A stretch of DNA of 64,000 nucleotides. Source: Candidatus Omnitrophota bacterium (GTDB lineage Bacteria > Omnitrophota > Gorgyraeia > 1-14-0-20-64-10). The DNA lies in the NCBI GenBank assembly GCA_016177405.1, contig JACOVG010000013.1:1858-65857 (forward strand). The letters are read 5' to 3'. Both the position numbers and the translations under genes were made by a program. Below are positions 37,995 to 51,832 of the stretch, in pieces. Within the stretch, counting starts at the first letter, position 1, and every line of letters starts with the position of its first letter. The notes under the pieces were generated by a model. That model worked only from the letters and a program-made list of their open reading frames with translations. It made no database searches and was not told where the DNA came from.

Positions 37995-38195
37995 ATCGTG
38001 TGAGGGAAGCCCTGTGACCTGCCTGATGCCGGGCAGGAAGTCAGGCGCGGCCCCGCCACTGTAAGCCCGCCTCCGCCAAAGAAGTTGGCGGAGAACCTTA
38101 GCGCAGATCCAGCCACTGTCCACCAAACAAAATGGCGGATGGGAAGGCGCGCTGAAAGGTCGGGCAAGCCAGGAGACCTCGCGGTGTCCCACATA
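37995..38195 (+). promoter_or_regulatory. Cobalamin (B12) riboswitch
   Basis: 5' GGUGUGAGGGAAGCC; CCCGCCACUGUAAGCC; GCCACUGUCC...GGGAAGGCG; B12 box AAGCCAGGAGACCUCG at 38166-38183; SD GGGGGAGG and ATG 38239 follow. Confidence 0.8.
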
Positions 38196-38238: not shown

Positions 38239-38817
38239 ATGGCCTCGTACTCTCGTAAGAACGAGGCCTGTTTTGTCTCCGGAGGCCGGGGGCAGGGAGG
38301 CCTCATCCTGGTCACCGGGGGGGCGCGGTCCGGAAAAAGCGCCTTCGCCTTGGGGCTTGCCGACCGGGGCGCCTTTAAGAGGCGCCTCTTTGTCGCCACG
38401 GCGGTCGCTTGCGATGGCGAAATGCGCTCCCGCATCGCCCGCCACCGGAGACAGCGAAACGGCGCTTGGGGGCTGCTGGAGGAACCGCTTCGGCTGCCCG
38501 AGCGCCTGCCCCTGAAGGATCTTCCCGCGGGATCGGTTCTCTTGCTGGATTGCCTTCCCACCTTCGTGACCAACCTTCTTCTGGCCAAGGTTTCTCCCTC
38601 CCGGATTGAAAAGAGGCTTGAGGCCCTGGCGGATTGTTTGCGCGCTCCGGGGTTGACGGCGATTGTGGTGACCAATGAGGTGGGCCAGGGGGTGGTGCCG
38701 GGCTCCGCCTTGGGCAGGAGGTTCCGGGATCTTTTAGGAAACGCGAATCAGACCATTGCTTCCCGCGCCGACGGCGTCTACCTGATGGTGGCCGGGATAC
38801 CCATGAGGATCAAATGA
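38239..38817 (+). CDS. cobU: Adenosylcobinamide kinase / adenosylcobinamide-phosphate guanylyltransferase
   Basis: 192 aa, GGARSGKS P-loop. Confidence 0.85.
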   Translation: MASYSRKNEACFVSGGRGQGGLILVTGGARSGKSAFALGLADRGAFKRRLFVATAVACDGEMRSRIARHRRQRNGAWGLLEEPLRLPERLPLKDLPAGSVLLLDCLPTFVTNLLLAKVSPSRIEKRLEALADCLRAPGLTAIVVTNEVGQGVVPGSALGRRFRDLLGNANQTIASRADGVYLMVAGIPMRIK

Positions 38818-39875
38818 CCAACGAACTGCTTTCCCTTCTTGAGATTCCCGCCATCGATGAAAAGGCGCGCTCCGAGGCGAAGAGGCGGGTCGATTCGCTC
38901 ACCAAACCGCTGGGATCGCTGGGCCGGCTGGAGGATCTGGGCGTTGCCCTGGCCGGGATGACCGGGCGGGTCACCCCCACGCTCGAGCGCAAGGTGATTT
39001 TCACCGTGGCCGGGGACCATGGGGTTGTCCGGGAGGGGGTTTCGGCCTTTCCGCAGGAGGTGACGGCTCAGATGGTCCTGAATTTTCTGCGGGGGGGTGC
39101 TGCCATCAACGTCCTGGCTCGCGCGGCTTCCGCCGAGGTTCTGGTGGTGGATGCCGGTGTCGCGGCCGATCTTCCGAAAGCGGACGGGCTCATCCGCGTC
39201 AAGCTTAAGGCCGGCACCGAAAACATGGCCCAAGGCCCGGCCATGTCCCCGGGGGAGGCCCAGGGCATCGTGGAGGAGGGTTTTCGCCTCTTCAAAAGGA
39301 TTCACGCCGCCCGCGCCATAGACGTCGTCGGCTTGGGAGAGATGGGAATCGGCAACACCACCGCCAGCGCGGCCCTGGCGGCGGCCCTGCTGAACGTGGA
39401 GGCCTCTCTCGTTTCCGGGCGCGGCACAGGGCTCACGGACGGTCAGCTTTCCAAGAAGATTCAGGTGATCGACCAGGCCTTGAAGCTCAACCGGCCTGAT
39501 TCCAAGGACCCGATGGATTGTCTGGCCAAGGTGGGCGGTTTTGAGATCGGCTGTCTGGCCGGCATCACCTTAGCGGCCGCCTCGGCCCGGGTTCCGGTGG
39601 TGATGGACGGCTTTATCTCCACCGTGGCGGCCTTCCTGGCCTATCGGATCTCGCCGGCGGTCAAGCCATTTCTCATCGCCGCGCACCGTTCGGTGGAGCC
39701 CGGCCACAGCCTTTTGCTCAACGCCCTGGAGCTTCGGCCCCTCCTGGAGCTTCAGATGCGGCTGGGAGAAGGGACCGGAGCGGCCCTCGCTTTTCAAATC
39801 CTGGAGGCCTCGGTCCGGATCCTTTCGGAGATGGCCACCTTTTCCGAGGCCCAAGTGAGCGAGGGGACACCGTGA
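38814..39875 (+). CDS. cobT: Nicotinate-nucleotide--dimethylbenzimidazole phosphoribosyltransferase
   Basis: 353 aa CobT family. Confidence 0.9.
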   Translation: MTNELLSLLEIPAIDEKARSEAKRRVDSLTKPLGSLGRLEDLGVALAGMTGRVTPTLERKVIFTVAGDHGVVREGVSAFPQEVTAQMVLNFLRGGAAINVLARAASAEVLVVDAGVAADLPKADGLIRVKLKAGTENMAQGPAMSPGEAQGIVEEGFRLFKRIHAARAIDVVGLGEMGIGNTTASAALAAALLNVEASLVSGRGTGLTDGQLSKKIQVIDQALKLNRPDSKDPMDCLAKVGGFEIGCLAGITLAAASARVPVVMDGFISTVAAFLAYRISPAVKPFLIAAHRSVEPGHSLLLNALELRPLLELQMRLGEGTGAALAFQILEASVRILSEMATFSEAQVSEGTP

Positions 39876-40624
39876 AGTTTCTGCGCGCTCTTCAAGATGC
39901 CTTCTCCTTTCTGACCATCGTTCCGGTCGGTTCCAGGGTGGGAGGGTCCGATCCCTCCCTGCGGATGAGCAGGGCCCTTGCCTGGTTTCCCTTGGTGGGG
40001 GCTGCGGTGGGGGCCGCGGGGGCCGGGGTGGCCTGCGGAGCTTTTCGTTTCTTGCCCTGGCCGGTGGCTTCCGGTTTGGGCTTGGCGGCCGCGGTGCTCT
40101 TAACCGGCGCGCTGCACCTGGATGGTTTTGCCGACACCCTGGACGGTCTCGCGGGCGGGAAGGATCGGCAAGAGTGCCGCCGGATCATGGAGGACGCGCG
40201 CGTGGGGGTTTTTGGGGTGGTGGGTTTGATCCTTCTTCTGGGTTTGAGGTGGGAAGCCCTCCAGAGGACGGGACCGAGCCTTGTCCTCGGAACCTGGGTG
40301 ACCGCGGGGTTGTTCAGCCGCTTGGGGATGGTTTTGTCGGCCCAGTTCTTTCCTTATGGTCCGGGCCGGAAGGGTCTGGGCTCCTGGGTGACCGGCCGCA
40401 AGGTTCCCGGCGCGGTGGCCTGGGCGGTTCTTCTGGCGCTGGGGGGCAGTCTCTTCTTCTGGGTCGTCCCCAAGGTTCTGGTGTGGCTGGGTTTGACCCT
40501 CGGGGTGGCGGCGCTTTTCAACACCTGGGTGAAGAGCCGTCTGGGAGGGATCACCGGGGACACCCTGGGGGCCGTGAATGAGATTCTGGAAACGCTCCTG
40601 CTGATGGCCATGGTGGCGGGGTGA
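39872..40624 (+). CDS. cobS: Adenosylcobinamide-GDP ribazoletransferase (cobalamin synthase)
   Basis: 250 aa multi-TM CobS. Confidence 0.85.
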   Translation: MKFLRALQDAFSFLTIVPVGSRVGGSDPSLRMSRALAWFPLVGAAVGAAGAGVACGAFRFLPWPVASGLGLAAAVLLTGALHLDGFADTLDGLAGGKDRQECRRIMEDARVGVFGVVGLILLLGLRWEALQRTGPSLVLGTWVTAGLFSRLGMVLSAQFFPYGPGRKGLGSWVTGRKVPGAVAWAVLLALGGSLFFWVVPKVLVWLGLTLGVAALFNTWVKSRLGGITGDTLGAVNEILETLLLMAMVAG

Positions 40625-41706
40625 GCCCACACGGCGGGAACATCTGGGAGCTGTGCCGGCGCCGCGGCTTCGACCCCCCAGAGGTCCTTGATGTGAGCGC
40701 GGATCTGAACCCCTTGGGCCCGCCGCCGGGCTGGGAGGGGCGGCTCGCGGAAGGCCTCAAGAGTCTGCGTTGGTATCCGGATCCGGATTATCTGGATTTC
40801 CGCCGCGCCGCGGCTTGCCTTCATGGTCTTGAGCCGGAGTGCATCCTGCCCGGCAACGGAACCGCGGAGCTCATTCACCTTGCGGCCGGCGCTTCACGGT
40901 TCCGGCGGGCAGTGGTGGCCGTTCCAACCTTCACCGAATACGAAAGGGCTCTGGCGGGCAGGGGCAAGCCGATTTCTCTCTGGCCCCTTCAGGCGCCCGG
41001 CTTCAGGCCGCCATCCCTTCCCAGCGATTTCTCCGGCTGTGAGAGCGGCTTGATCTTCCTGTGCAACCCCAACAATCCCACCGGCACCCTCTGGCCCAGG
41101 GAGAGCCTGGTGGAGCTTCTGGCGGCGGCCGGCAAACATCAGGCGACGGTGGTGGTGGACGAGGCCTATCTTGATTTTGTTCCTGATCCCGGGCGTTACT
41201 CCATGGCCGGCCAGGTGAAGCATTTTAAGAATCTCATCGTCCTGCGCTCCCTGACCAAATCGTTCGCCCTGCCGGGTTTGAGGATCGGCTACCTGGCGGC
41301 CGAGCCCGGGATGGCCGCGGCGCTGGCCCAGGAACAGCCTCCTTGGTCTCTGAACGCCTTGGCCGCCGGGTTGGGGCCCTGGCTTCTGGAGCAGTCCGGT
41401 CACCTGGCCGAGAGCCGGCGGGAGCTCACGAAACTGCGCTTGGAATTGCTGGAGGACTTGAGGAGCGTGCCCGGCCTTCGAATCCATCCTTCCGAGGCAA
41501 ACTTCTTCTTGTGCGAGCTGACCGACCCGGAGCTCTCGACGCGGGAGATCCGTCAGGCGCTGGAGGGCCAAGGAATCTTGATTCGGACCTGCGACGACTT
41601 TACCGGTCTCACGCCCGGCCGTTTCTTCCGGGTGGCGGTGAAGCCGCGGCGTGAGAACGAACGGCTCATCACCGCGATGAAGGGGCTCTTCGCGCATGCA
41701 AACTGA
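40621..41706 (+). CDS. cobD: L-threonine-O-3-phosphate decarboxylase (CobD/CobC family, HisC-like)
   Basis: HGGNIWEL N-terminus, PLP fold. Confidence 0.8.
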   Translation: MSPHGGNIWELCRRRGFDPPEVLDVSADLNPLGPPPGWEGRLAEGLKSLRWYPDPDYLDFRRAAACLHGLEPECILPGNGTAELIHLAAGASRFRRAVVAVPTFTEYERALAGRGKPISLWPLQAPGFRPPSLPSDFSGCESGLIFLCNPNNPTGTLWPRESLVELLAAAGKHQATVVVDEAYLDFVPDPGRYSMAGQVKHFKNLIVLRSLTKSFALPGLRIGYLAAEPGMAAALAQEQPPWSLNALAAGLGPWLLEQSGHLAESRRELTKLRLELLEDLRSVPGLRIHPSEANFFLCELTDPELSTREIRQALEGQGILIRTCDDFTGLTPGRFFRVAVKPRRENERLITAMKGLFAHAN

Positions 41707-43198
41707 TTTCCTGATGTTCCAGGGGACCGGCTCCCACGTGGGGAAGTCGGTTCTCGCGACCGCCCTGTGCCGGATTCTCCGTCGAAGGGGGATCCGGGCG
41801 GCCCCCTTCAAGGCGATGAACATGTCCAACAACGCCTGGGTCACGCGCGCAGGCGGCGAGATGGCCTATGCCCAGGCGGCGCAGGCCTGGGCCGCCGGCG
41901 TGGAGCCGGCGGTGGAGATGAACCCTGTTCTCCTGAAGCCGGAGGCGGATCACACCTCCTCCCTCATCGTCCTGGGCAAGCCCGAGGGGCGCCTGCCCGC
42001 GATGGGAATCCGGGAGGTTCGCGAGCGCCTGATCCAGGTGATGGAAGAGAGCTTGAACCGGCTTGCTGGGGAGTTTGAGTTCATCGTGATCGAAGGGGCC
42101 GGGTCCCCCGCCGAGGTGAATCTTGCCCAGTGGGATCTGGCGAACATGGCGGTGGCCCGGAAGGTTCGGGCTCCGGTGATTCTGGTGGGGGACATCGAGC
42201 GGGGCGGGGTCTTTGCTCAAATTGTGGGAACGCTCGCCCTGTTGAATCCGGAGGATCTCGGGCTCGTGCGAGGCTTCGTGATCAACAAGTTCCGGGGGGA
42301 GCGGTCCCTGCTGGATCCGGGTTTAACCTGGCTTGAACAGCGGACCGGCCTTCCGGTTTTCGGCGTTGTTCCGTTTCTTCATGACCTTCGGATCCCGCAG
42401 GAGGACGCGGTGGCCTTGTCCGATCCGGCCGCGCCCCTGCCGAAGCCTTCCGCCAACGGCTCCTGGATCCGGATTCAGGTGGTTCGCTACCCCCAGATCG
42501 CGAACTTCACCGATTTTAAGCCGCTAGAAGAGGAGCCCGGGGTCCAGGTGGAGTACCTCACCCGGCCGCCACCGGACGCCCGGCGGCCCCGGCCCCATCT
42601 CTTGATCCTGCCGGGCACGAAGAGCACGGTCTCGGACCTTCAGTGGCTGAGGGAGCGGGGATTCGAGCCGTACTTGAAGAGCTCTCTCCAAGCCGGTGTC
42701 GAGGTGCTCGGGATCTGCGGCGGTTTCCAGATGCTGGGTGAGTGGATTCGCGATCCGGCCCACGTCGAGTCCGCTTACGCCAGCGTGGCGGGTCTGGGGC
42801 TCCTGCCCGCCTCCACGCGGTTTACGCCTGCCAAGGTGACGGTTCAGGTGGAGGGGGTCCACCCGGAAAGCGGGCTGACCATTCGGGGCTACGAGCTTCA
42901 TGCCGGTTGTCTTGAGGCGAACCATAAGGGAGAGCCGGTTTTCCGGATCACCCGCCGGGGCGGCCAAGCGGCCGACGGTTGGGACGGCTGCCGCCTGGCC
43001 GATCTACCGGTCTGGGGCACCTACCTGCATGGGCTCTTTGATGAGCCCGGCTTCAGGCGCTGGTTTCTGAATCGGCTGCTTCCCCGGGGGGGAGAGGGTG
43101 CGGGTGAGGGAGGGGACCCTTACGATTTCCTGGCCGATCAGGTGGAAAAGGCTCTTAACCTTTCGGAGATTCTTCCTCTATGGAAGCCATCGGTCTAA
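41696..43198 (+). CDS. cobQ: Cobyric acid synthase
   Basis: 500 aa, CobQ/CbiP GATase. Confidence 0.9.
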   Translation: MQTDFLMFQGTGSHVGKSVLATALCRILRRRGIRAAPFKAMNMSNNAWVTRAGGEMAYAQAAQAWAAGVEPAVEMNPVLLKPEADHTSSLIVLGKPEGRLPAMGIREVRERLIQVMEESLNRLAGEFEFIVIEGAGSPAEVNLAQWDLANMAVARKVRAPVILVGDIERGGVFAQIVGTLALLNPEDLGLVRGFVINKFRGERSLLDPGLTWLEQRTGLPVFGVVPFLHDLRIPQEDAVALSDPAAPLPKPSANGSWIRIQVVRYPQIANFTDFKPLEEEPGVQVEYLTRPPPDARRPRPHLLILPGTKSTVSDLQWLRERGFEPYLKSSLQAGVEVLGICGGFQMLGEWIRDPAHVESAYASVAGLGLLPASTRFTPAKVTVQVEGVHPESGLTIRGYELHAGCLEANHKGEPVFRITRRGGQAADGWDGCRLADLPVWGTYLHGLFDEPGFRRWFLNRLLPRGGEGAGEGGDPYDFLADQVEKALNLSEILPLWKPSV

Positions 43199-44124
43199 GG
43201 ATCGTCTTGGCCTACGGCTTGGATCTCCTGCTGGGAGATCCGGCCTGGCTGCCTCATCCGATCCGGGGCTTAGGCTGGGTGATCGAAAGCTCCGAGGCCG
43301 CCCTCCGGCGCCTGATCCGCAGTGAGCTTTTGGGCGGCATTCTTCTTGTTCTTCTGATCGGCGGGGGGACTTGGGGCCTGGTGGGGTTTGTGGTGGGTTG
43401 GGCGGCGCGGATTTCGCCGCTTTTTGCCCTGGGGATGGAGGCGGCCTTCCTCTATATCTGCTTGTCCACCAAGGATCTGGCGGTGGAAAGCTGGCCGGTC
43501 TTCCGCGCCCTGGAGCGAGGGGATCTGCCGTTGGCCAGGCGGAAGCTTTCCATGATCGTGGGAAGGGACACCGGGGAGCTTGACGAACCGGAGGTGACCC
43601 GCGGCACGGTGGAAACGATCGGCGAGAGCCTCATGGATGGCGTGGTCTCACCCCTGTTTTACGCCGCCATCGGCGGGGTGGGGCTGGCCTGCTGTTACAA
43701 GGCGGTCAACACCCTCGATTCCATGGTGGGATACCGGTCGAGCCGTTACCTCCGCTTTGGAAAGGCGTCGGCGGCCGTTGACCGGTGTATGAACGCCCTC
43801 CCCGCCTGGATCACGGCCGGCCTCATCGCGGCGGCCGCGGGATTGCTGGGCTTGCCGGGAGGCGGTTCTCTTCGGGCGTTTCTCAAGAATCCCAGGGCGC
43901 GCCAGGAGAACTCCTGGATCCCCGAGGCGGCGATGGCCGGAGCGCTGGGGGTCCGGTTGGGCGGGGTCAACCGGTATCAGGGTCTTGCCGTTGAAACCCC
44001 TTTTCTGGGTGAGCCGCTTAGGCCGTTAGGCCGGGCGGTCATTCCCCAGGCGATCCGGGTGATGTGGATGGCCTCGGGGCTGTCCCTTTTCGCGGCGCTG
44101 GGCTTGGCTGGGCTTATCCGATGA
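43180..44124 (+). CDS. cbiB: Adenosylcobinamide-phosphate synthase
   Basis: 314 aa membrane CbiB/CobD. Confidence 0.85.
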   Translation: MEAIGLRIVLAYGLDLLLGDPAWLPHPIRGLGWVIESSEAALRRLIRSELLGGILLVLLIGGGTWGLVGFVVGWAARISPLFALGMEAAFLYICLSTKDLAVESWPVFRALERGDLPLARRKLSMIVGRDTGELDEPEVTRGTVETIGESLMDGVVSPLFYAAIGGVGLACCYKAVNTLDSMVGYRSSRYLRFGKASAAVDRCMNALPAWITAGLIAAAAGLLGLPGGGSLRAFLKNPRARQENSWIPEAAMAGALGVRLGGVNRYQGLAVETPFLGEPLRPLGRAVIPQAIRVMWMASGLSLFAALGLAGLIR

Positions 44125-47100
44125 CCAGGGTCCCCAGGCTTCTCATCGCCGGAACGGCGAGCGGGGCGGGCAAGACCACCGTGACCTTGGGGCTGGCGGC
44201 GCTTTTAAGACAAAAGGGTCTGGTGGTCCAGCCGTTTAAGGCGGGCCCGGACTACATCGATTCCGCTTATCACACCCAGGCGGCCGGACGCCCCTGCCGG
44301 AATCTGGACGCCTGGCTCGTTCCCTCCGGCTCCTTGAACGCCATCCTGACCGGGGCGGCCCAGGGGGCCGACCTGTCTTTGGTGGAAGGGATGATGGGCC
44401 TGTTCGATGGGATCGGGCCCACCGGGGAGGAGGCCAGCACCGCGGAGCTGGCCAAGAAGCTCGCCTTGCCGGTTCTTTTGGTGGTGGACGCGGGCTCTTT
44501 CTCCCGCTCGGCCGCCGCCCTGGTGAGAGGCTTCAGGGATTTCGACCGGAAGGTCAAGATCGCCGGCTGTTTCCTGAACCGGGTTTCCTCGGAAGCCCAT
44601 GCCCTCCTGGTGAAGAGGGGGATTGAGACCCTGGCCGGGGTGCCGGTGGTCGGCTTTCTGCCCCAGGACGGCCGCCTTCGGCTGCCCGAGCGCCACCTGG
44701 GGCTGGTCCCTTCCGTCGAGCAAAAGGGCTGGCAGAGGATTCTGGCTCTCCTGGTCAAGCAGATGGAGCACAGCGTGGATGCCGAGGCTCTGCTGCGCTT
44801 GGCCCGGCGCGCGCCCCCCTTGGAGGCAGCAGCTATTTTAGGGTCATTGCGAGGAGCCGGCCAGAGGCTGGCGACGAAGCAATCTCAGGGATTGCTTCGC
44901 CCCTTCGGGGCTCGCAATGACATGAGGAGGGTGCCCATCGCGGTCGCCAGGGACGAGGCGTTTCACTTTTATTATCCGGAAAATTTGGAGCTTCTTGAAA
45001 AGTTCGGGGCGGAGATGGTTCCCTTCAGCCCCCTAAAGGATCGGAGCCTTCCGCGGGGGGCTGCCGGGCTCTATCTGGGAGGGGGATTCCCCGAGGTTTT
45101 CGCCGAGCCGCTTTCCAGGAACGCTTCCCTCCATCGGGAGATTCGGGAGAAGGCGGCCGCTGGGCTGCCCACCTATGCCGAGTGCGGGGGTTTGATGTAT
45201 CTTTCGCGAAGCATCCGTTCCACAAAGAGAAGGAGCTTTTCCATGGTGGGACTTGTCCCGGCCGAGATTCGGATGACCGACCGGCTTCAGCATTTCGGAT
45301 ACAAGAAACTTCGGGCTTGCCGGACCACGGTCCTGGCGAGGGCAGGGGAGAAGGCCAGGGGCCACGAGTTCCATCACTCGCAAGCCGTGGGGATTCCCGT
45401 GGAGGAGCGGGCCCCTTATGAGGCCCGGTCGGCCGGCGGCGAGGGCAGGCGCCTGGAGGGGTATGCCTACGGCAGTCTCCTGGCTTCCTATGTCCACCTT
45501 CATTTCATGAGCCAGCCGGCTTGGGCTAAGCGGTTGGTTGAGGCCGCGCGCCGCTGGTCAGGAGTTCTTCTTTTTCTCACCGCTTACAGCTTGCAGCTTA
45601 TCGCCGTCTCTTTCGCGGAGGAGCCGACCCGCCTGGAGGAGGTGGTCGTCACCGCCACCAAGGCCAAGACCCCGGCCAAGGAGGTGACCCGGGCGGTTTC
45701 GGTGATACCGGCCGAGCGCTTAAGCGTCGTCAAGGGAGGATTTGTCTCGCAGGGCTTGAGCGACGTGCCGGAGACCCTGGTCCGCCGGACCGGGTCCATC
45801 GGACGCACGACGGCTGTGGTGATTCGGGGGGCGTCGGCGACCCAGGTCCATGTGACCGTGGATGGCGCCCATGTGGCCAGCCCAACCACCGGCTCCTTCG
45901 ATTTCAACCATTTCACGCCGGATAATCTGGAACGGATCGAGATCCTCCGCGGGCCCGGCAGCACCCTCTACGGCGCGGACGCCATGGGAGGCGTGATCAA
46001 TCTCGTCACCCGGCGCGGCGAAGGGCCGTTCACCTTCTCCGCCACCTCGGAGTATGGCACCCTTTTGGACACCTTTCGGGAAGCCGCCTCCATGCAAGGG
46101 GCCTCGGGGCCGTGGCATCTGTCGGCCTCCTCCTCCCGGATGGACGCCAACGGCCTAAGCCAGAACGACGACTACCAAAATCTGAATCTTTCCACACGGA
46201 TTGGCTATGACCTGCCCAACCAGGCAACGGCGGATCTGACCCTGCGCCACATCTGGGCCGTGGTCGGGGTGGACGACGGCCCCTTTCGCCCGGACACGAA
46301 CCGGAGGGACCGGGAACGGCAGACCATCGGGACGGTCCGCCTGGAAGCCCCGGTGACGGCCTGGTGGAGCCAAACCTGGCGCTTCTCCACGGCCATCTCG
46401 AACTTCATCGACAACGATCCCTCCAACGGCGGCACCCAAACCGACAGCCTCTTCAAGCTGGATACCGAGCGCTATGGCGCCGAATGGATGAACCGCTTCA
46501 CTCCGGTTTCCTGGGACGCGCTGACCGTGGGTCTGGAGTTCGAAGACCGGGAGGCCGACAACCGGAGTTTTTCGAAAACCCAGGTCACGCGCGCCGCCTA
46601 CCTCCAGAATCAGTGGCGGCCCGTTGATCCCCTGACGGTGGTTGCCGGTTTCCGGTTCTTTCGGGAGAGCGCCTTCGGCAGCGATCAGGTCTTCGACCTG
46701 TCGGCGGCCTATTTCCACGAGCCCTGGGGTCTCAAGGCGCGCGGGGGCTATGGCCAGGGCTTCCGTCCTCCCACCCTGAACGAGCTTTTCTTTCCCGGCT
46801 TTGGTGTCCCCAACCTCTCTCCGGAAAAGAGCGAAACCTGGGAGATGGGCTTTGACCAGGTGCTCTGGGACAACCGGATCAATTGGTCCGGCACCCTCTT
46901 TCGGACGGAGTACGAGGATCTGATTCAGACCGTCCGGGTCTCGTCCACCGTTTCCGCGCCTCAAAATGTGGGCAAGTCGAGGATTCGCGGGGCGGAGCTG
47001 GAGCTTGAGCTCAAACCCTGGGACCCTTGGACCTTGACCGGCTCCTACACCCACCTGGAGGCCAACGAGGATCCCAGCGACGAGGAGCTCTTGAGGGTGC

Positions 47101-47384
47101 CCAAGAACACCGTGGGCTTCAGCGCGGGGTTTGCCCCCTCCAAGAGGTGGGACGCCCGCCTGGAGGGACTGCTGGTCTCAAGCCGGGAGGAGTCCACCGG
47201 CACCAACTCCCGCAACAAGACCAAGGGGTACCTCAAGCTCGATGCCCTGCTGCAGTACCGCTTCAAGCCGTGGTTGAGAGGCCATTTGAGGGTGGACAAC
47301 CTGACCGACCGCCAGTATGCCGAGGTGCTGGGTTTTCCGGCCGAGGGGCTCGCGGCCTCCGTGGGGCTGACGGTGGAGCGATGA
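44121..47384 (+). CDS. cbiA: Cobyrinic acid a,c-diamide synthase (CbiA/CobB, first ~460 aa) reading through without stop into a TonB-dependent receptor
   Basis: ATG 44121 overlaps the cbiB stop; CbiA homology ends near ...YVHLHFMSQPAWAKRLVEAARRW; same frame continues into the receptor. Confidence 0.7.
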   Translation: MTRVPRLLIAGTASGAGKTTVTLGLAALLRQKGLVVQPFKAGPDYIDSAYHTQAAGRPCRNLDAWLVPSGSLNAILTGAAQGADLSLVEGMMGLFDGIGPTGEEASTAELAKKLALPVLLVVDAGSFSRSAAALVRGFRDFDRKVKIAGCFLNRVSSEAHALLVKRGIETLAGVPVVGFLPQDGRLRLPERHLGLVPSVEQKGWQRILALLVKQMEHSVDAEALLRLARRAPPLEAAAILGSLRGAGQRLATKQSQGLLRPFGARNDMRRVPIAVARDEAFHFYYPENLELLEKFGAEMVPFSPLKDRSLPRGAAGLYLGGGFPEVFAEPLSRNASLHREIREKAAAGLPTYAECGGLMYLSRSIRSTKRRSFSMVGLVPAEIRMTDRLQHFGYKKLRACRTTVLARAGEKARGHEFHHSQAVGIPVEERAPYEARSAGGEGRRLEGYAYGSLLASYVHLHFMSQPAWAKRLVEAARRWSGVLLFLTAYSLQLIAVSFAEEPTRLEEVVVTATKAKTPAKEVTRAVSVIPAERLSVVKGGFVSQGLSDVPETLVRRTGSIGRTTAVVIRGASATQVHVTVDGAHVASPTTGSFDFNHFTPDNLERIEILRGPGSTLYGADAMGGVINLVTRRGEGPFTFSATSEYGTLLDTFREAASMQGASGPWHLSASSSRMDANGLSQNDDYQNLNLSTRIGYDLPNQATADLTLRHIWAVVGVDDGPFRPDTNRRDRERQTIGTVRLEAPVTAWWSQTWRFSTAISNFIDNDPSNGGTQTDSLFKLDTERYGAEWMNRFTPVSWDALTVGLEFEDREADNRSFSKTQVTRAAYLQNQWRPVDPLTVVAGFRFFRESAFGSDQVFDLSAAYFHEPWGLKARGGYGQGFRPPTLNELFFPGFGVPNLSPEKSETWEMGFDQVLWDNRINWSGTLFRTEYEDLIQTVRVSSTVSAPQNVGKSRIRGAELELELKPWDPWTLTGSYTHLEANEDPSDEELLRVPKNTVGFSAGFAPSKRWDARLEGLLVSSREESTGTNSRNKTKGYLKLDALLQYRFKPWLRGHLRVDNLTDRQYAEVLGFPAEGLAASVGLTVER
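45507..47384 (+). CDS. TonB-dependent outer-membrane receptor, BtuB-like (candidate independent start at internal ATG 45507)
   Basis: Signal-like MSQPAWAKRLVEAARRWSGVLLFLTAYSLQLIAVSFA, TonB box EEVVVTA, plug domain IRGASATQV...GGVINLVTRRG, beta-barrel. Confidence 0.6.
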   Translation: MSQPAWAKRLVEAARRWSGVLLFLTAYSLQLIAVSFAEEPTRLEEVVVTATKAKTPAKEVTRAVSVIPAERLSVVKGGFVSQGLSDVPETLVRRTGSIGRTTAVVIRGASATQVHVTVDGAHVASPTTGSFDFNHFTPDNLERIEILRGPGSTLYGADAMGGVINLVTRRGEGPFTFSATSEYGTLLDTFREAASMQGASGPWHLSASSSRMDANGLSQNDDYQNLNLSTRIGYDLPNQATADLTLRHIWAVVGVDDGPFRPDTNRRDRERQTIGTVRLEAPVTAWWSQTWRFSTAISNFIDNDPSNGGTQTDSLFKLDTERYGAEWMNRFTPVSWDALTVGLEFEDREADNRSFSKTQVTRAAYLQNQWRPVDPLTVVAGFRFFRESAFGSDQVFDLSAAYFHEPWGLKARGGYGQGFRPPTLNELFFPGFGVPNLSPEKSETWEMGFDQVLWDNRINWSGTLFRTEYEDLIQTVRVSSTVSAPQNVGKSRIRGAELELELKPWDPWTLTGSYTHLEANEDPSDEELLRVPKNTVGFSAGFAPSKRWDARLEGLLVSSREESTGTNSRNKTKGYLKLDALLQYRFKPWLRGHLRVDNLTDRQYAEVLGFPAEGLAASVGLTVER

Positions 47385-47773
47385 CCCTGGCTATGAGTTG
47401 GGGGCTTGTGCGGTGCGCCGGAGTCTTACTGATGCTGGGGCTGGCGGCGGGGTGCGCGACGGTGCCGAGAGAGTTTCCGGTGACGCTGGAGGTGGACTAT
47501 GGCCCAGCCGGAAAGCCGGCCATCCATGAGACGGTCATCGTCTCTCGTGGGGCGACGCCGGAGGCGGCCACCACCGCGGTTTTCCCGATTGAGAAAGGGT
47601 CGGTCTGCTGTGACCCCCGGGAGACCTCTGCCATCGACGGAGTGGCTGCCGATCCCGCGGCCAACCGCTGGTGGGTGGTCTCGGTGAACGGCTCGAAGAA
47701 GGTCTCCCCCTATAAAACCAAACTCAAGCTGGGTGACAAGATCCGTTGGGAATACCGCCAATATGAGCAGTAA
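47381..47773 (+). CDS. Small lipoprotein with transcobalamin-beta/DUF4430-like motif (putative corrinoid-binding)
   Basis: Lipobox LGLAAGC; C-terminus RWWVVSVNGSKKVSPYKTKLKLGDKIRWEYRQY. Confidence 0.55.
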   Translation: MTLAMSWGLVRCAGVLLMLGLAAGCATVPREFPVTLEVDYGPAGKPAIHETVIVSRGATPEAATTAVFPIEKGSVCCDPRETSAIDGVAADPAANRWWVVSVNGSKKVSPYKTKLKLGDKIRWEYRQYEQ

Positions 47774-48476
47774 GATGAGAGCCGGCTTTTTCACACTCCT
47801 CTTGTTGGCGTCCGCCTCTTCCGGGTACGCGCAGGAGGTTCGTGGAAGGGTGAGGGTCGATGGTTCACCGCCTGCCCAAGAGACGATCACGATTCAGGCC
47901 AAGAGCAAGGCGTATCCCATCGAGGGCTGCGGGCCGATTCAGAAGGCTTCGCCGAAGCTCGAGGTGAGCGCCGCTGGCGGGGTTAAAAACGCTGTGGTCT
48001 GGGCGGAGATTCCAGCTCAGGTCCAGCCAGAGCCCCTTCATCTCCTGATGGACCAGAAGGCGTGCGTTTTCAGCCCTCATGTCGTGGCCGCCGCGGCGGG
48101 TCAATCGTTGGCGATCCGGAACTCCGACCGAGTGATCCACAACGTCCGGATCTTCCGGGAGGGCAGGCCCGAGATGCTGATGCACCGGTGGCAGAAGGTG
48201 GATGGGGCCGACATCGTCTGGAGATTTGATGAACCGGGCCGGTACCTCGTCCGGTGCGGGGTCCACCCTTGGATGTACGGCTGGGTCTTCGTCGCCCCCG
48301 GGCGGTCCGTTGCCGTGACGGATGAAGAGGGACGCTTCGAGCTGACCGGTCTGCCGGAGGGCCGACATACCCTCCGCGTCTGGCATGAGACGCTGGGAAA
48401 CCGGGAGCTTGAGATGGAGGTAGGGAGCCAACCCCTGGATCTTGCCCCGGTGGTTTTTCCAAAGAAGGAGGCCTGA
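47763..48476 (+). CDS. Secreted cupredoxin-like (type-1 Cu site-like) plus CarboxypepD_reg-like domain protein
   Basis: Signal peptide; HNV...YLVRCGVHPWMYG; C-terminal VTDEEGRFELTGLPEGRHTLRVWHE. Confidence 0.55.
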   Translation: MSSKMRAGFFTLLLLASASSGYAQEVRGRVRVDGSPPAQETITIQAKSKAYPIEGCGPIQKASPKLEVSAAGGVKNAVVWAEIPAQVQPEPLHLLMDQKACVFSPHVVAAAAGQSLAIRNSDRVIHNVRIFREGRPEMLMHRWQKVDGADIVWRFDEPGRYLVRCGVHPWMYGWVFVAPGRSVAVTDEEGRFELTGLPEGRHTLRVWHETLGNRELEMEVGSQPLDLAPVVFPKKEA

Positions 48477-49096
48477 TGTTTTACGAGTGGTTTAAGCTGG
48501 GCGGCCCGGTGATGTGGGCGTTGCTCGCCTGTTCCATCGTGGCGCTCACGGTGATCAGCGAGCGGTTCTTCTTTTGGAGGGAGATCCGGCGCTCGCGGGA
48601 CGCCGGCGCCGTGGAGTCGATGCTGGCGCTCATCGAGCAGGGGCAAATCTCCCAGGCGCTGGCCAGGGGACGCGCCCTCTCCGATCCGGTGGCCCGGGTG
48701 CTGACCCGCGGCCTGGAGCATTGGCCCGCGGCCGTGACCGGCGCCCTGGAGGCCCAGGCCCAGGAGGAGCTGCGGCCGATGCGCCGGTACCTCGGCGTTC
48801 TGGAGACGACCATCACCCTGGCTCCGCTTTTGGGCATCTACGGAACGATCACCGGCATGATCCGGGCCTTCGGTTTCTTGAGCCGGGCCGGGATCACCGA
48901 CCCCCATCAGGTGGCCGCGGGGATCGCCGAGGCGCTGATCACCACGGCGGCTGGGCTGACCATTGCGATTGTCAGCATTCCGCCGTACAATTTCTTCACC
49001 GCCAAGACCGAGGAGGTGGCGCACGACATGGAGCGCCAGGCGACGGCGCTTGAGCTCTTGGCGGGGCGCAAACGATCGGCGGAGGGTTCCTCGTGA
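48476..49096 (+). CDS. exbB: MotA/TolQ/ExbB proton-channel protein
   Basis: 206 aa, 3 TM. Confidence 0.85.
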   Translation: MFYEWFKLGGPVMWALLACSIVALTVISERFFFWREIRRSRDAGAVESMLALIEQGQISQALARGRALSDPVARVLTRGLEHWPAAVTGALEAQAQEELRPMRRYLGVLETTITLAPLLGIYGTITGMIRAFGFLSRAGITDPHQVAAGIAEALITTAAGLTIAIVSIPPYNFFTAKTEEVAHDMERQATALELLAGRKRSAEGSS

Positions 49097-49509
49097 GGAT
49101 TTATTTTCCCCGTTCCTCGAAACCTAGGATCGAGATGATTCCCCTGATCGATGCCTTCTTCCTGCTGTTGGCCTTCTTCATGTCGTCGGTGATCACCATG
49201 GAGGTGGTTCAGGGGCTTCCGCTGGAACTGCCGCGGGCCGGGCCTTCCAAACCGCTGGCGTCAGGTGACCGGTGGATGGTGACCGTTACCCGGGAGGGCG
49301 CGGTTCAGCTTGAGGGGCGGGCGGTGACCTTGGAGGAATTGCGCTCGCGTTTGGCGGGCCATCCGGATCTGGAGTCGCTTCGGGTGGGCATTCGTGCCGA
49401 TCAGGCCACCCCTTACGAACGGGTGGTGCAGGTGTTGGCGGCGGCCCAGGCCAGCGGGGTCAAACGGGTTAACCTGCTGACCTCCGGCCGAAAGGAAAAG
49501 GAACGTTGA
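49093..49509 (+). CDS. exbD: Biopolymer transport protein ExbD/TolR
   Basis: 138 aa; IPLIDAFFLLLAFFM. Confidence 0.85.
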   Translation: MRIYFPRSSKPRIEMIPLIDAFFLLLAFFMSSVITMEVVQGLPLELPRAGPSKPLASGDRWMVTVTREGAVQLEGRAVTLEELRSRLAGHPDLESLRVGIRADQATPYERVVQVLAAAQASGVKRVNLLTSGRKEKER

Positions 49510-50039
49510 GCTTAAGGTTGGCGAAATCCGCCCTGCTGTCGGCTGGGGTGCATGCCCTGTTCATTCTCCCCGCCATCCACTTCGGCTTGGCCGGCGCTCC
49601 TCCCAAGGCGGACGTGGTTCGGGGCCGGGCAATCCTGGAGCTGGAGTGGGTGGACCCCCAGCCCTTGGACAAAGAGGAAGGGGAAGAGGAGCAGCGGGAG
49701 AAGTTGGGATTCAAGCCCCAGGAGGCGGTGGTGACCCCGGGGGCTTTTTCGGTGGCCGCGCCGGCGGGTTTTCGCAATCCGGCGCCGGCCTATCCCTGGG
49801 CGGCGAGGCTTCGAGGCTGGCAGGGAACGGTGGTGCTTCGGGTTTCGGTCGCCGCCTCCGGTCTGCCGGAGAGGGTGGAGATCGCCGTAAGCTCGGGCCA
49901 CGCGGTTTTGGATCAGGCGGCCCTGGAGGCTTTAAGGGCTTGGCGGTTTGTTCCGGCTCGGAAGGGCTCTCAAGCGGTGGCTGGGGTGGTGGAGATTCCG
50001 GTGACATTCAAATTGGATGAATCGAAGGAGGAGTTATGA
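49506..50039 (+). CDS. tonB: Energy transducer TonB
   Basis: TTG start; N-terminal TM, Glu/Pro linker, TonB-C GTVVLRVSVAASGLPERVEIAVSSGHAVLDQAALEALRAWRF. Confidence 0.75.
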   Translation: MSLRLAKSALLSAGVHALFILPAIHFGLAGAPPKADVVRGRAILELEWVDPQPLDKEEGEEEQREKLGFKPQEAVVTPGAFSVAAPAGFRNPAPAYPWAARLRGWQGTVVLRVSVAASGLPERVEIAVSSGHAVLDQAALEALRAWRFVPARKGSQAVAGVVEIPVTFKLDESKEEL

Positions 50040-50548
50040 AGCTGACTTGGGTTCTGGTGGCGGTGGGGGGTTTGATGGCGGCGGCGTTTCAACATGAACT
50101 GGGCGCGGCTCCCATCTTGGGTGCTCTCTTGTGCGCGGCCTGCTTCTTGAGGCCTCGGGATCTTTTCTGGGTGGGCTTGGGCGGGATGCTGGTTCGTGAG
50201 CTCGCGATCGGCATTTCCGTCTTCAGCGCGGTGCGCCTGGTCGCGGTGGCGCTGGTGGCGGCGGCGCTGGTGGCCCTGAAGGTTCGCCCCAGCTTTCGCT
50301 CCATCCTGACTGGACTGCTGGTTTCCTCGCCGATCTTTCATCTGTCCCTTTCGGTTGGAGACTGGCTGACCGGCTTCTGCGGCGTTTGGCCCAAGACGGC
50401 CGCGGGCTTGACCGGAGCGATTGTCACGGCGCTGCCTTACTTTCAGCGGTCGCTGGTCGGAGATTTCCTTTTCTCCAGCCTCTTCTTGGGGCTCTACACC
50501 GGTTTGGCTTATTGGACCACCGCGGTCCGGACCCGCGCCGCTTCGTGA
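50036..50548 (+). CDS. Polytopic inner-membrane protein, family unassigned
   Basis: 170 aa, ~5 TM, translationally coupled between the two TonB genes. Confidence 0.5.
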   Translation: MKLTWVLVAVGGLMAAAFQHELGAAPILGALLCAACFLRPRDLFWVGLGGMLVRELAIGISVFSAVRLVAVALVAAALVALKVRPSFRSILTGLLVSSPIFHLSLSVGDWLTGFCGVWPKTAAGLTGAIVTALPYFQRSLVGDFLFSSLFLGLYTGLAYWTTAVRTRAAS

Positions 50549-51240
50549 GACTGAAAGGGGCCCTGGGCTGGTCGTTGGCGCTCCACGCGGGAGTGCTGGC
50601 CCTGCCTTTGCCGCGCGGCTTCATCGCTTACGTCCCGACCGGCAAGCCCCTTTCCGTTACCTTTATGGGATCTCCGTCTGTCGCAGCAGCGGCGGCGGCC
50701 GCGAAGCAGGCGGCTGTGAAAGCCCAGGATTTGGTGGAGGTCAAGCGCCCCTCGGTAAGCCCTGCCGCGGCGGCCGTCGAAAAACCCCGGCGGGCTCCGC
50801 CTCCGGCCCCGGCCCGGCTTGAGAAACCGGCGCCCAAACCCGCCGCTCCGGCTCCGTCCCGGAAGGAGTTGGCCGGGCCGCTCAAGGGTCCGGCGCCGCC
50901 TGAACATCAAGCGGAGAGATCCCGGGATGACGGCGGGGCGTCAATCCAGATGCTGTCGGGCTCTTTCCTCTCCCTGGAGCATCGGCAAAAGGTGAGGGAA
51001 CACCTGAAGGGCCGCTTGACCTTTCCGGCGGTCTGGATTCGGGGTTTTGTCCATATGCGCTTGACCCTGGAGCCCGAAGGGCGGTTGGTGACTGCCCAGG
51101 TTCTGGAGAGCTCTGACCCCAAGCTTTCCGAGGCTGCCCTCCGGGAGGTCCAGCAGGCGGCCCCTTATCCCGCCTTCTCCCGCGACGTTTCCGAGGCCGC
51201 CCTCCAGTACGACTTCCTCATCCGCTACGAGCCCGACTAA
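50545..51240 (+). CDS. Second TonB-C/TolA-like domain protein with Ala/Pro-rich linker
   Basis: GTG 50545 overlaps the upstream stop; C-terminal GFVHMRLTLEPEGRLVTAQVLESS...AAPYPAF. Confidence 0.6.
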   Translation: MRLKGALGWSLALHAGVLALPLPRGFIAYVPTGKPLSVTFMGSPSVAAAAAAAKQAAVKAQDLVEVKRPSVSPAAAAVEKPRRAPPPAPARLEKPAPKPAAPAPSRKELAGPLKGPAPPEHQAERSRDDGGASIQMLSGSFLSLEHRQKVREHLKGRLTFPAVWIRGFVHMRLTLEPEGRLVTAQVLESSDPKLSEAALREVQQAAPYPAFSRDVSEAALQYDFLIRYEPD

Positions 51241-51293
51241 CCTCCCCCCGCCCTCTGTGTGGGGGTTTGCCGGCCACGGGTCCTCGCAGACCA

Positions 51294-51790
51294 CCCCGCC
51301 TTTGGTCTGGGGGAGAGGGCTCGCTCCGGAGATCTGGATGCCAGCTTCCGAGGCCCCCGCCCGGTGTGTGGGGGTTTGCCGGCCACGGGTCCTGCCGCCT
51401 GCGGGTACTCCCGCCGTCCGTCCTCGGCCCCTCGACTCCGTTCGTCCAGAGCTTGTCGAAGGACGAACGTCGCTCGGGACCTGCGGGCGTGGCGGCGGGT
51501 CCTCCCTCCGGCGTCACCCGTGTCCGCAGTCTCACCCCACACCCCGATCCGTCTCTTCGTAAGAGAGCACCCCGCCCTGGGGATGGGGGAAGGGCGAGCC
51601 TTAGGAGATCCTGGCGGTGGTCCGCAGGACCAGGGCGCGCAGGAGCGAAGCGCAGCGGAAACGGCGCCATTGGGTCTGGCCGCTCCCCCGCTGGATTTGG
51701 GCGAGGGTGGACGCCGAGGTTCTGCAAGCGGAGCGCCGAGCACCCAGCCAGATCTCCGGAGCGAGCCCTCTCCCCCAGACCAAGGGCGGG
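51294..51790. repeat. Non-coding GC-rich element bounded by 44-bp inverted repeats (51294-51337 / 51747-51790, 1 mismatch) with a 28-bp direct repeat (51257-51284, 51366-51393)
   Basis: Direct sequence comparison; internal perfect hairpin CGTTCGTCC-N13-GGACGAACG at ~51450-51480. Confidence 0.7.
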
Positions 51791-51832
51791 GGAACTCCGA
51801 TGAACTGGGGAGTCGGAATGTTTCGAGAAGGG

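Follow-up and report, generated by a model that had tools for sequence, protein, structure and literature searches.

Why should a gene for a blue-copper-like protein lie inside a vitamin B12 uptake operon? This question is raised by a contig of an uncultured Candidatus Omnitrophota bacterium (JACOVG010000013.1, assembly GCA_016177405.1), of which one stretch of 64,000 nucleotides, here called the window, was analysed, and it concerns the gene at 47763..48476 on the + strand, which stands between a TonB-dependent receptor with its neighbouring DUF4430 lipoprotein on the one side and exbB on the other. A first-pass annotation had described the product as a secreted cupredoxin with an amicyanin-type C-x2-H-x2-M loop, a description with which the signal peptide, the conservation of the ligands and the fold of an AlphaFold2 (AF2) model all agree. 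Comparison of related loci indicates that this blue-copper protein is a conserved part of a riboswitch-controlled B12 uptake operon in Omnitrophota, and the sequences and models taken together suggest a working type-1 copper (T1Cu) protein that was recruited to corrinoid uptake. In what follows we set out the evidence for the copper site and for the conserved association, describe the operon, and weigh what such a protein may contribute to it.

Copper site and nested architecture

The ligand set of the protein is amicyanin-like, with His126 (48138-48140) followed by Cys165-x2-His168-x2-Met171 (codons at 48255-48257, 48264-48266 and 48273-48275, respectively). When compared with PDB sequences by phmmer (E 6e-4), His126, Cys165 and His168 align on His40, Cys78 and His81 of pseudoazurin, the H126-N-V of the one pairing with the H40-N-V of the other. 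Conservation was assessed in an alignment of 87 in-group sequences (~40-60% identity) and 48 out-group sequences, in which all four ligands are kept in 87/87 of the close and 47/48 of the distant homologues, and Asn127, right after the first ligand His, is present in every one of the 87 close homologues. Given that all four ligands are strictly retained, metal binding appears to be under selection. From the in-register alignment and the fold match we infer that the four ligands cluster round one metal position and that the metal bound there is copper, and the evidence as a whole favours the reading of a working copper site.

The cupredoxin core (residues ~91-178; 48033..48296) was delimited by HMMER comparison with pseudoazurin, by Foldseek and by ligand conservation. 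The beta-sandwich that the earlier description implied is present in the AF2 model (built on 31 sequences; predicted local distance difference test, pLDDT, 91.2; predicted template modelling score, pTM, 0.86) and in its Foldseek matches, the best of which in the PDB are NirK cupredoxin domains, pseudoazurin, a Nitrosopumilus cupredoxin, amicyanin and plastocyanin. These matches have E-values of 6e-6 to 3e-4 and template modelling (TM) scores of 0.53-0.79 when normalised on the single-domain targets, and they superpose over ~95 residues with a root-mean-square deviation of 2.3-3.5 A, so that we regard the fold, along with the conservation of the ligands, as demonstrated. Profile scores are lower, since the Copper-bind model PF00127 reaches 19.3 bits (E 0.0015) against a gathering threshold of 21.2, sub-threshold though near full length (residues 96-177 on profile positions 7-98 of 99), and the equivalog test fails both for pseudoazurin (TIGR02375, 21.7 bits against a cut-off of 109.85) and for amicyanin (TIGR02657, 14.8 bits against 110.2). 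No match of the BtuF type (PF01497, class III binding protein) was obtained for the cupredoxin in Pfam, PDB sequence or fold searches, and a Pfam scan of the operon detected no mau or nir partner genes.

The remainder of the protein is related to the CarboxypepD_reg family in an unusual arrangement. The intact protein scores 28 bits against PF13620 (threshold 32.3), with residues 182-216 covering profile positions 30-64, and an artificial splice that joins residues 24-45 (EVRGRVRVDGSPP...) to residues 179-237 scores 36.9 bits over positions 2-64. Because the threshold is passed only after this splicing, the domain is best regarded as discontinuous, with the cupredoxin inserted into it, and the order along the protein becomes sandwich strand 1, an N-terminal subdomain (~46-90, including C56), the cupredoxin (~91-178, including C101) and the remainder of the sandwich. 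The first strand or strands (residues 24-45; 47832..47897) are placed by the score of the spliced construct and by a DSSP strand at 24-32, and the rest of the sandwich (residues 179-237; 48297..48473), placed by the PF13620 match and by conservation, carries the family-wide motif W207-H208-E209-x-L211-G212. The first-pass annotation had taken this part for a CarboxypepD_reg-like domain fused to the C-terminus; the beta-sandwich sequence is indeed there, but the splice score shows it to be split around the cupredoxin rather than appended to it. Two cysteines outside the copper site, C56 and C101, are found in 87/87 in-group sequences and in 42/48 and 43/48 out-group sequences, respectively, and their presence co-varies across the family; judged from this pattern, a disulfide between them may link the N-terminal subdomain with the first strand of the cupredoxin, or the pair may constitute a second functional site.

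Amicyanin and pseudoazurin (PF00127) are therefore relatives that share some features of the protein and lack others. Common to all are the cupredoxin fold, the in-register His...Cys...His...Met, the Asn after the first His and the periplasmic location, and amicyanin shares in addition the C-x2-H-x2-M loop length and the HP-aromatic-M pattern, which here reads C165-G-V-H168-P-W-M171 (CGVHPWM) and in amicyanin C-T-P-H-P-F-M (CTPHPFM). On the other hand, identity is 20-28% and the Omnitrophota protein misses all curated cut-offs; it is nested in a split sandwich, possesses the extra N-terminal subdomain and the C56/C101 pair, and instead of a methylamine dehydrogenase or nitrite reductase partner it has a B12 uptake operon around it.

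The open reading frame (ORF) encodes 237 amino acids (aa) from ATG 47763 to a stop codon at 48474-48476, and both peptides quoted in the first-pass annotation, DRVIHNV...YLVRCGVHPWMYGWV and VAVTDEEGRFELTGLPEGRHTLRVWHE, are found in it. GTG 47733 and ATG 47775 are alternative starts, and the NCBI call (P0001, 'hypothetical protein', 233 aa, 100% identity) begins at the latter. As read from the sequence, the protein begins with a Sec signal peptide, MRAGFFTLLLLASASSGYA|QE, which has no lipobox, and hence a soluble protein of the periplasm is predicted. ATG 47763 overlaps the upstream DUF4430 gene by 11 nt and the stop codon overlaps the ATG of exbB, an arrangement of gene ends that points to translational coupling.

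Conserved neighbourhood and descent

A locus scan in which 19 closer sequences served as query, with one genome per species, returned 58 loci. Fifteen of these, at 40-60% identity, all belong to Omnitrophota (some are labelled 'uncultured Planctomycetia'), and in 15/15, as far as the contigs reach, the gene order is receptor and/or DUF4430, cupredoxin, the ExbB-ExbD-TonB set where there is one, DUF6580 and a TonB-like gene. The cupredoxin also lies between DUF4430 and DUF6580 where the cluster is without exbBD (L008, L012, L014 and L064/L065), and because it persists there, it seems to track the cargo-handling genes DUF4430 and DUF6580 and not the Ton motor. Co-occurrence with btuB and exbBD had been suggested earlier as a check; the neighbourhood of DUF4430, receptor and DUF6580 is kept, but exbB is not the constant partner, as L008, L012, L014 and L064 illustrate. 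The cobalamin riboswitch (RF00174) was recovered in 7/8 relative loci with enough upstream sequence, standing directly before the receptor in L005, L006, L007, L008 and L015 (and in L060, which has no cupredoxin) and ahead of the cob genes in L007, L010 and L011. Riboswitch control and the gene order beside DUF4430 and DUF6580 can accordingly be counted, with the fold and the ligands, among what has been demonstrated.

The numbers of clusters are alike for the two proteins, a DUF6580 search giving 87 and the cupredoxin clade comprising ~89. Three DUF6580 contigs absent from the cupredoxin list were examined (L060/L061, L062/L063 and L064/L065), and in the latter two a gene of 236-238 aa occupies the position expected of the cupredoxin, so that the succession of receptor, DUF4430, cupredoxin and DUF6580 is kept there too; that of L062 is 46% identical to it (tblastn), and that of L064 is assigned by size and position alone. 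The minimal cluster of L060 (5009-9162), and likewise of L061, consists of riboswitch, receptor, DUF4430, a gap of ~420 nt, DUF6580 and a TonB-like gene, with no ExbBD and no adjacent cob genes. As the cupredoxin is lacking from this cluster, we consider it a near-constant accessory and not part of an indispensable core. Between DUF6580 and the TonB-like gene of L064 (7486-8130) and L065 (4053-4697) there is a nitroreductase-family gene (PF00881, 214 aa), the product of which could be a dimethylbenzimidazole synthase of the BluB type or some other flavin reductase; in the case of BluB, the organisms would meet oxygen.

Two in-frame fusions of DUF4430 and cupredoxin, with different junctions, have been found as well, one (P0091, on an ENA contig of 1392 nt) containing the whole of DUF4430 and the cupredoxin core only, and the other (P0081, on a contig of 3163 nt) containing half of DUF4430 and the cupredoxin from residue ~66 on, so that both of its domains are truncated. 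As weak evidence, they hint at physical cooperation between the two proteins; each is a singleton on a short contig, and they may be natural deletions or assembly artefacts.

Beyond Omnitrophota the nested protein has relatives in one very large family. When 1.84 billion representatives were searched with a profile, 59,623 proteins were recovered at E<=1e-3; at E<=1e-30 there were 4,662 (50%-identity clusters), a count that takes in giant proteins matching only via repeated CarboxypepD_reg units. Most of the top matches are 225-290 aa long and align end to end. Members are annotated as 'plastocyanin', 'hypothetical' or 'carboxypeptidase regulatory-like domain-containing protein', and the family may overlap with the CDD 'MauL' cupredoxin group. 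The members share the full-length architecture, together with C56, C101, N120, D122, H126, C165, H168, W170, M171 and the WHExLG motif. What separates the out-group (~30-37% identity) from the Omnitrophota proteins is its setting, next to cytochromes, porins, SCO and NtrC regulators and not to B12 or Ton genes, and a set of residues described below.

This setting was analysed in 43 out-group loci (L016-L058; 29-37% identity) from Planctomycetota, Methylomirabilota, Nitrospirota, Acidobacteriota, Binatia, Myxococcota and others, where no receptor, ExbB, ExbD, TonB, DUF4430 or DUF6580 was detected near the homologue. The genes that recur beside it encode cytochromes c (one dihaem, one monohaem and one fused to COX3) and an NrfB/MtrA-like multihaem cytochrome, accompanied by an MtrB/PioB porin, porin-like proteins (one with an N-terminal CXXCH) and NtrC-type regulators, a layout that recalls modules for iron oxidation or extracellular electron transfer. 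Genes with CXXCH make up 37/202 (18%) of the out-group genes within three genes of the homologue against 22/311 (7%) further off (odds ratio 2.9, p 2e-4), and 0/54 of the genes near in-group cupredoxins. In Sinorhizobium (S.) meliloti, the copy on pSymA (L059, 525093-525812) is divergent from a gene for an SCO copper chaperone; hemA is adjacent as well, and genes for a cbb3 oxidase lie ~5 kb off. On the strength of the out-group neighbours and of the S. meliloti copy, electron transfer in the periplasm, together with copper biology, is taken to be the ancestral setting.

The 88 sequences from B12 operons group together in a neighbour-joining tree, to the exclusion of all 48 sequences of the out-group, and this monophyly suggests a single recruitment into the B12 operon. 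Eleven positions are invariant in the B12 clade and other in the out-group, namely W80, R119, R129, I130, F131, L139, W143, W153, R160, R164 and G166, with His in the out-group at R129 and Asp at G166, and a number of these lie next to the ligands H126 and C165. With three Trp and four Arg that are newly invariant, a new docking surface seems to have arisen near the copper end, whose partner may be the corrin ring with its propionamides or nucleotide phosphate, or equally a protein. The out-group His129 and Asp166 were considered as extra metal ligands and rejected, since in amicyanin itself the second His of HNVH is no ligand.

The operon and its candidate carrier

The B12/TonB operon that the first-pass annotation had outlined was found as such, all of its genes lying on the + strand and sharing overlapping stops and starts, in the order riboswitch, cob genes, TonB-dependent receptor, DUF4430, cupredoxin, ExbB, ExbD, TonB, DUF6580 and a TonB-like gene. 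At its head is a cobalamin riboswitch aptamer (38003..38179; Rfam RF00174, 58.6 bits against a gathering threshold of 31.5, E 5.8e-12). The contiguous, overlapping ORFs at 38239..44124 encode CobU, CobT, CobS, CobD (aminotransferase), CobQ/CbiP and CbiB, for the late synthesis and salvage of cobamides, and were assigned by the Pfam models CobU, DBI_PRT, CobS, Aminotran_1_2, GATase_3/CbiA and CobD_Cbib, all far over threshold. They are followed by CobB/CbiA (cobyrinic acid a,c-diamide synthase) at 44064..45560, with an approximate 3' end, recognised by NCBIfam NF002204 (516 bits) over residues 24-481 of an ORF of 1106 aa. The gene set CbiA, CbiP, CbiB, CobU, CobS, CobT and CobD corresponds to the 'cobyrinate auxotrophy and salvage' genotype (PMC8123684), and since it fits this genotype, the cargo may include incomplete corrinoids.

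The receptor (45534..47384) is BtuB-like, with a plug and a barrel (Pfam Plug and TonB_dep_Rec_b-barrel); among models of TonB-dependent receptors its best is that of the vitamin B12 receptor, TIGR01779, at 219 bits and under the equivalog cut-off of 599.7. CobB/CbiA and the receptor lie in a single stop-free frame (44064-47384, 1106 aa) with a junction at ~45530-45620, where an in-frame TTG at ~45534 is the probable receptor start and gives a signal peptide, MVEAARRWSGVLLFLTAYSLQLIAVSFA|EE. The shared frame occurs also in two other species (L001 3-3854, L010 6296-9583). In other loci they are separate genes and a cobalamin riboswitch stands between them, and the CobB stop codon therefore seems to have been lost along with an internal riboswitch.

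The DUF4430 lipoprotein (47381..47773; lipobox LAAGC), whose ATG overlaps the TGA of the receptor, was identified with PF14478 at 30.6 bits (cut-off 23.8), the family to which the beta-domain belongs that binds cobalamin at the C-terminus of transcobalamin and of intrinsic factor. Downstream of the cupredoxin are ExbB (48476-49096; MotA_ExbB, 106 bits), ExbD (49093-49509; ExbD, 87 bits) and TonB (49506-50039; TonB_C, 78 bits), then the DUF6580 membrane protein, a candidate inner-membrane corrinoid carrier (50036..50548; PF20221, 49.7 bits), and a second TonB-like protein (50545..51240; TonB_C, 29.2 bits), the start of which is approximate, as the listed ORF from 50386 overlaps DUF6580. Neither BtuF nor BtuCD is encoded in the operon according to the Pfam scan. 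Between the second TonB-like gene and a gene for an M16 peptidase, the region 51245-51800 is repeat-rich and apparently non-coding, comprising a 47-nt inverted repeat of 96% complementarity (51294-51340 and 51745-51791) and 40-nt direct repeats of 95% (at 51245 and 51354); in related genomes this position is filled by rpsU (ribosomal protein S21).

DUF6580 (PF20221), for which no paper was found in the searchable literature, was modelled with a pLDDT of 91.3, and 8/10 of its best PDB matches in Foldseek are S-components of the ECF type (RibU, ThiT and a FolT-containing ECF complex) or BtuM (8c7p), with BioY also among the top matches. They range over TM 0.5-0.66 and probability 0.97-1.0 with weak E-values, and BtuM itself is matched at TM 0.57, probability 0.99 and a weak E of 0.2. 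C33 and C115 are invariant in 28/28 DUF6580 sequences, and no ECF module is encoded with the gene. PDB sequence searches at E<=10 returned no match for DUF6580, for DUF4430 or for a profile of eight DUF6580 sequences. BtuM is a solitary S-component that binds cobalamin via a Cys-Co bond and decyanates it, its gene typically adjoins btuB in organisms without BtuCDF, and its cobalt-ligating Cys is invariant (PMC6072759). Judged by its modelled fold, DUF6580 is a candidate for a new family of solitary inner-membrane corrinoid transporters.

A possible role in corrinoid uptake

The arrangement can be read as a BtuCDF-independent route for corrinoid uptake and salvage. The TonB-dependent receptor would bring the corrinoid across the outer membrane and the DUF4430 lipoprotein would hold it in the periplasm, where the cupredoxin would exchange one electron with the cobalt, Co(III)/Co(II), in either direction; the cobalt would thereby be brought into the oxidation and ligation state in which DUF4430 lets go of the corrinoid and the carrier captures it, and DUF6580, S-component-like and with an invariant Cys, would move the corrinoid across the inner membrane. 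That the protein has a functional T1 copper centre which exchanges one electron with the corrinoid cobalt near the DUF4430-bound state is advanced tentatively, as a proposal with less than even prospects, in which redox function and corrinoid partner are presumed. A redox role is preferred because the ligand set is kept perfectly and is not needed for a steric role, because the family background is redox, and because T1Cu potentials, at ~+0.25 to +0.4 V, lie between the Co(III)/Co(II) couple of corrinoids in the base-on form and that of the base-off form. It is preferred also because the Co(III)/Co(II) state governs both the ligation of cobalt by thiolate and its release, a chemistry met with in BtuM (PMC6072759) and in MMACHC and MMADHC (PMC12501144).

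Several observations weigh against this proposal. Nothing in the operon stands out as a donor or acceptor of electrons for the copper centre, and no CXXCH gene was found anywhere in the 64 kb of the window or close to any of the in-group loci. In L060/L061, the most divergent of the three DUF6580 contigs examined, tblastn revealed no trace of a cupredoxin, and the cluster nonetheless keeps the riboswitch, receptor, DUF4430, DUF6580 and TonB. The link between DUF6580 and BtuM is one of fold similarity (E 0.03-1) with no PDB sequence match, and to our knowledge a periplasmic redox step is needed by no known B12 uptake system. The stronger claim, in which the copper protein would act on DUF4430-held corrinoid in an obligatory periplasmic one-electron step that enables Cys-Co capture by an S-component-type carrier, must be called rather unlikely; if true, vitamin uptake coupled to a redox step would be seen here for the first time, and the corrin would be a new physiological partner of a cupredoxin.

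Could the protein instead serve the hand-off of the corrinoid with no redox step at all? Together with DUF4430 it might make up a periplasmic B12 binder in two pieces, of which it would be the second, covering the other corrin face, perhaps with an exposed His or Met on the cobalt, and shuttling the cargo to DUF6580, any copper being structural. Such a division of labour would suit a DUF4430 that is the counterpart of the beta-domain alone in transcobalamin and intrinsic factor, in an operon without a BtuF-type binding protein, and a cupredoxin gene that always lies directly downstream of DUF4430 with frames overlapping or abutting (by 11 nt in the window). The fusions P0091 and P0081 point the same way, as do W80, W143, W153, R119, R129, R160 and R164, which are of the kinds of side chain that contact corrins and their amide and phosphate groups. 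But a steric role leaves no need for four T1Cu ligands and Asn127 in 87/87 sequences, the fusions are singletons on short contigs, P0081 truncating both domains, so that deletion or artefact is possible, and the L060 lineage manages with DUF4430 alone; we consider this explanation unlikely, though less so than the two that follow.

Two further explanations both appear improbable. The CarboxypepD_reg sandwich might be an adaptor that docks on the periplasmic face of the receptor or on TonB/ExbD and is unrelated to cargo chemistry, as the position of the gene between receptor and exbB in the window, the presence of two TonB-like genes in the operon and the reported occurrence of the CarboxypepD_reg family at the N-terminus of SusC-type receptors could suggest. 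The nested architecture and its WHExLG motif are, however, kept across thousands of proteins, with no ExbB, ExbD, TonB or receptor near the homologue in the 43 out-group loci, which is why the likeness to the SusC-type N-terminal domain was rejected as a sign of Ton coupling; moreover, the cupredoxin persists without exbBD (L008, L012, L014, L064), and an adaptor would leave the conservation of the copper ligands unexplained. Alternatively, the protein may be a copper-handling passenger, a periplasmic buffer or chaperone that guards the carrier thiols or the corrinoid or serves an unrelated copper enzyme, so that its place in the operon would reflect co-regulation or history and not a transport step. 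Distant homologues do adjoin genes for an SCO copper chaperone and oxidases, and the cupredoxin is dispensable in one lineage (L060). Yet a Cys-His-His-Met T1 site is typical of electron carriers and not of copper chaperones, the gene keeps its place between DUF4430 and DUF6580, under a B12 riboswitch, over 40-60% sequence divergence, and the clade-specific surface changes argue for a dedicated role, which leaves little probability for a passenger.

Whether redox-active or not, the protein sets the operon apart from the B12 uptake systems already described, BtuB-BtuF-BtuCD and BtuB-BtuM. Riboswitch control and a BtuB-like TonB-dependent receptor are common to all, and DUF6580 resembles BtuM in its modelled S-component fold and in having invariant Cys, a likeness without detectable sequence similarity; the Omnitrophota operon differs in that it has no BtuF or BtuCD and adds DUF4430 and the cupredoxin, which are in neither described system. 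The closest parallel in logic, and in logic only, is FtrB, also a periplasmic cupredoxin inside a metal-nutrient uptake operon, with a different cargo, different partners and a different architecture; as part of the FtrABCD iron uptake system of Bordetella, Brucella and Burkholderia, it has reportedly been proposed to turn its cargo from Fe2+ into Fe3+ in the course of import. The first-pass annotation knew of no established role in corrinoid uptake for such a protein, and our full-text literature searches, thin on subscription journals, likewise found no cupredoxin tied to corrinoid uptake, a B12 review being without mention of cupredoxin or plastocyanin; nor did they find a description of the nested cupredoxin-in-CarboxypepD_reg architecture. 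As far as its gene content indicates, the operon would thus be a variant of riboswitch-controlled, BtuB-dependent B12 uptake that has not been described before.

About half of the B12-dependent bacteria lack BtuCDF, and the inner-membrane and periplasmic steps of their uptake are poorly known (PMC6072759). The finding reported here is one of genomic association in an uncultured phylum, and within it the locus offers a complete, riboswitch-defined candidate route, consisting of a receptor, a DUF4430 binder, a cupredoxin and an S-component-like carrier. Should the cargo be acted on by the copper protein, redox state would become a controlled variable in the extracytoplasmic trafficking of a vitamin, in parallel to the Co-S chemistry of BtuM and of the human chaperones MMACHC and MMADHC, and one branch of the thousands of unannotated cupredoxin-in-sandwich proteins would have been given its first function.

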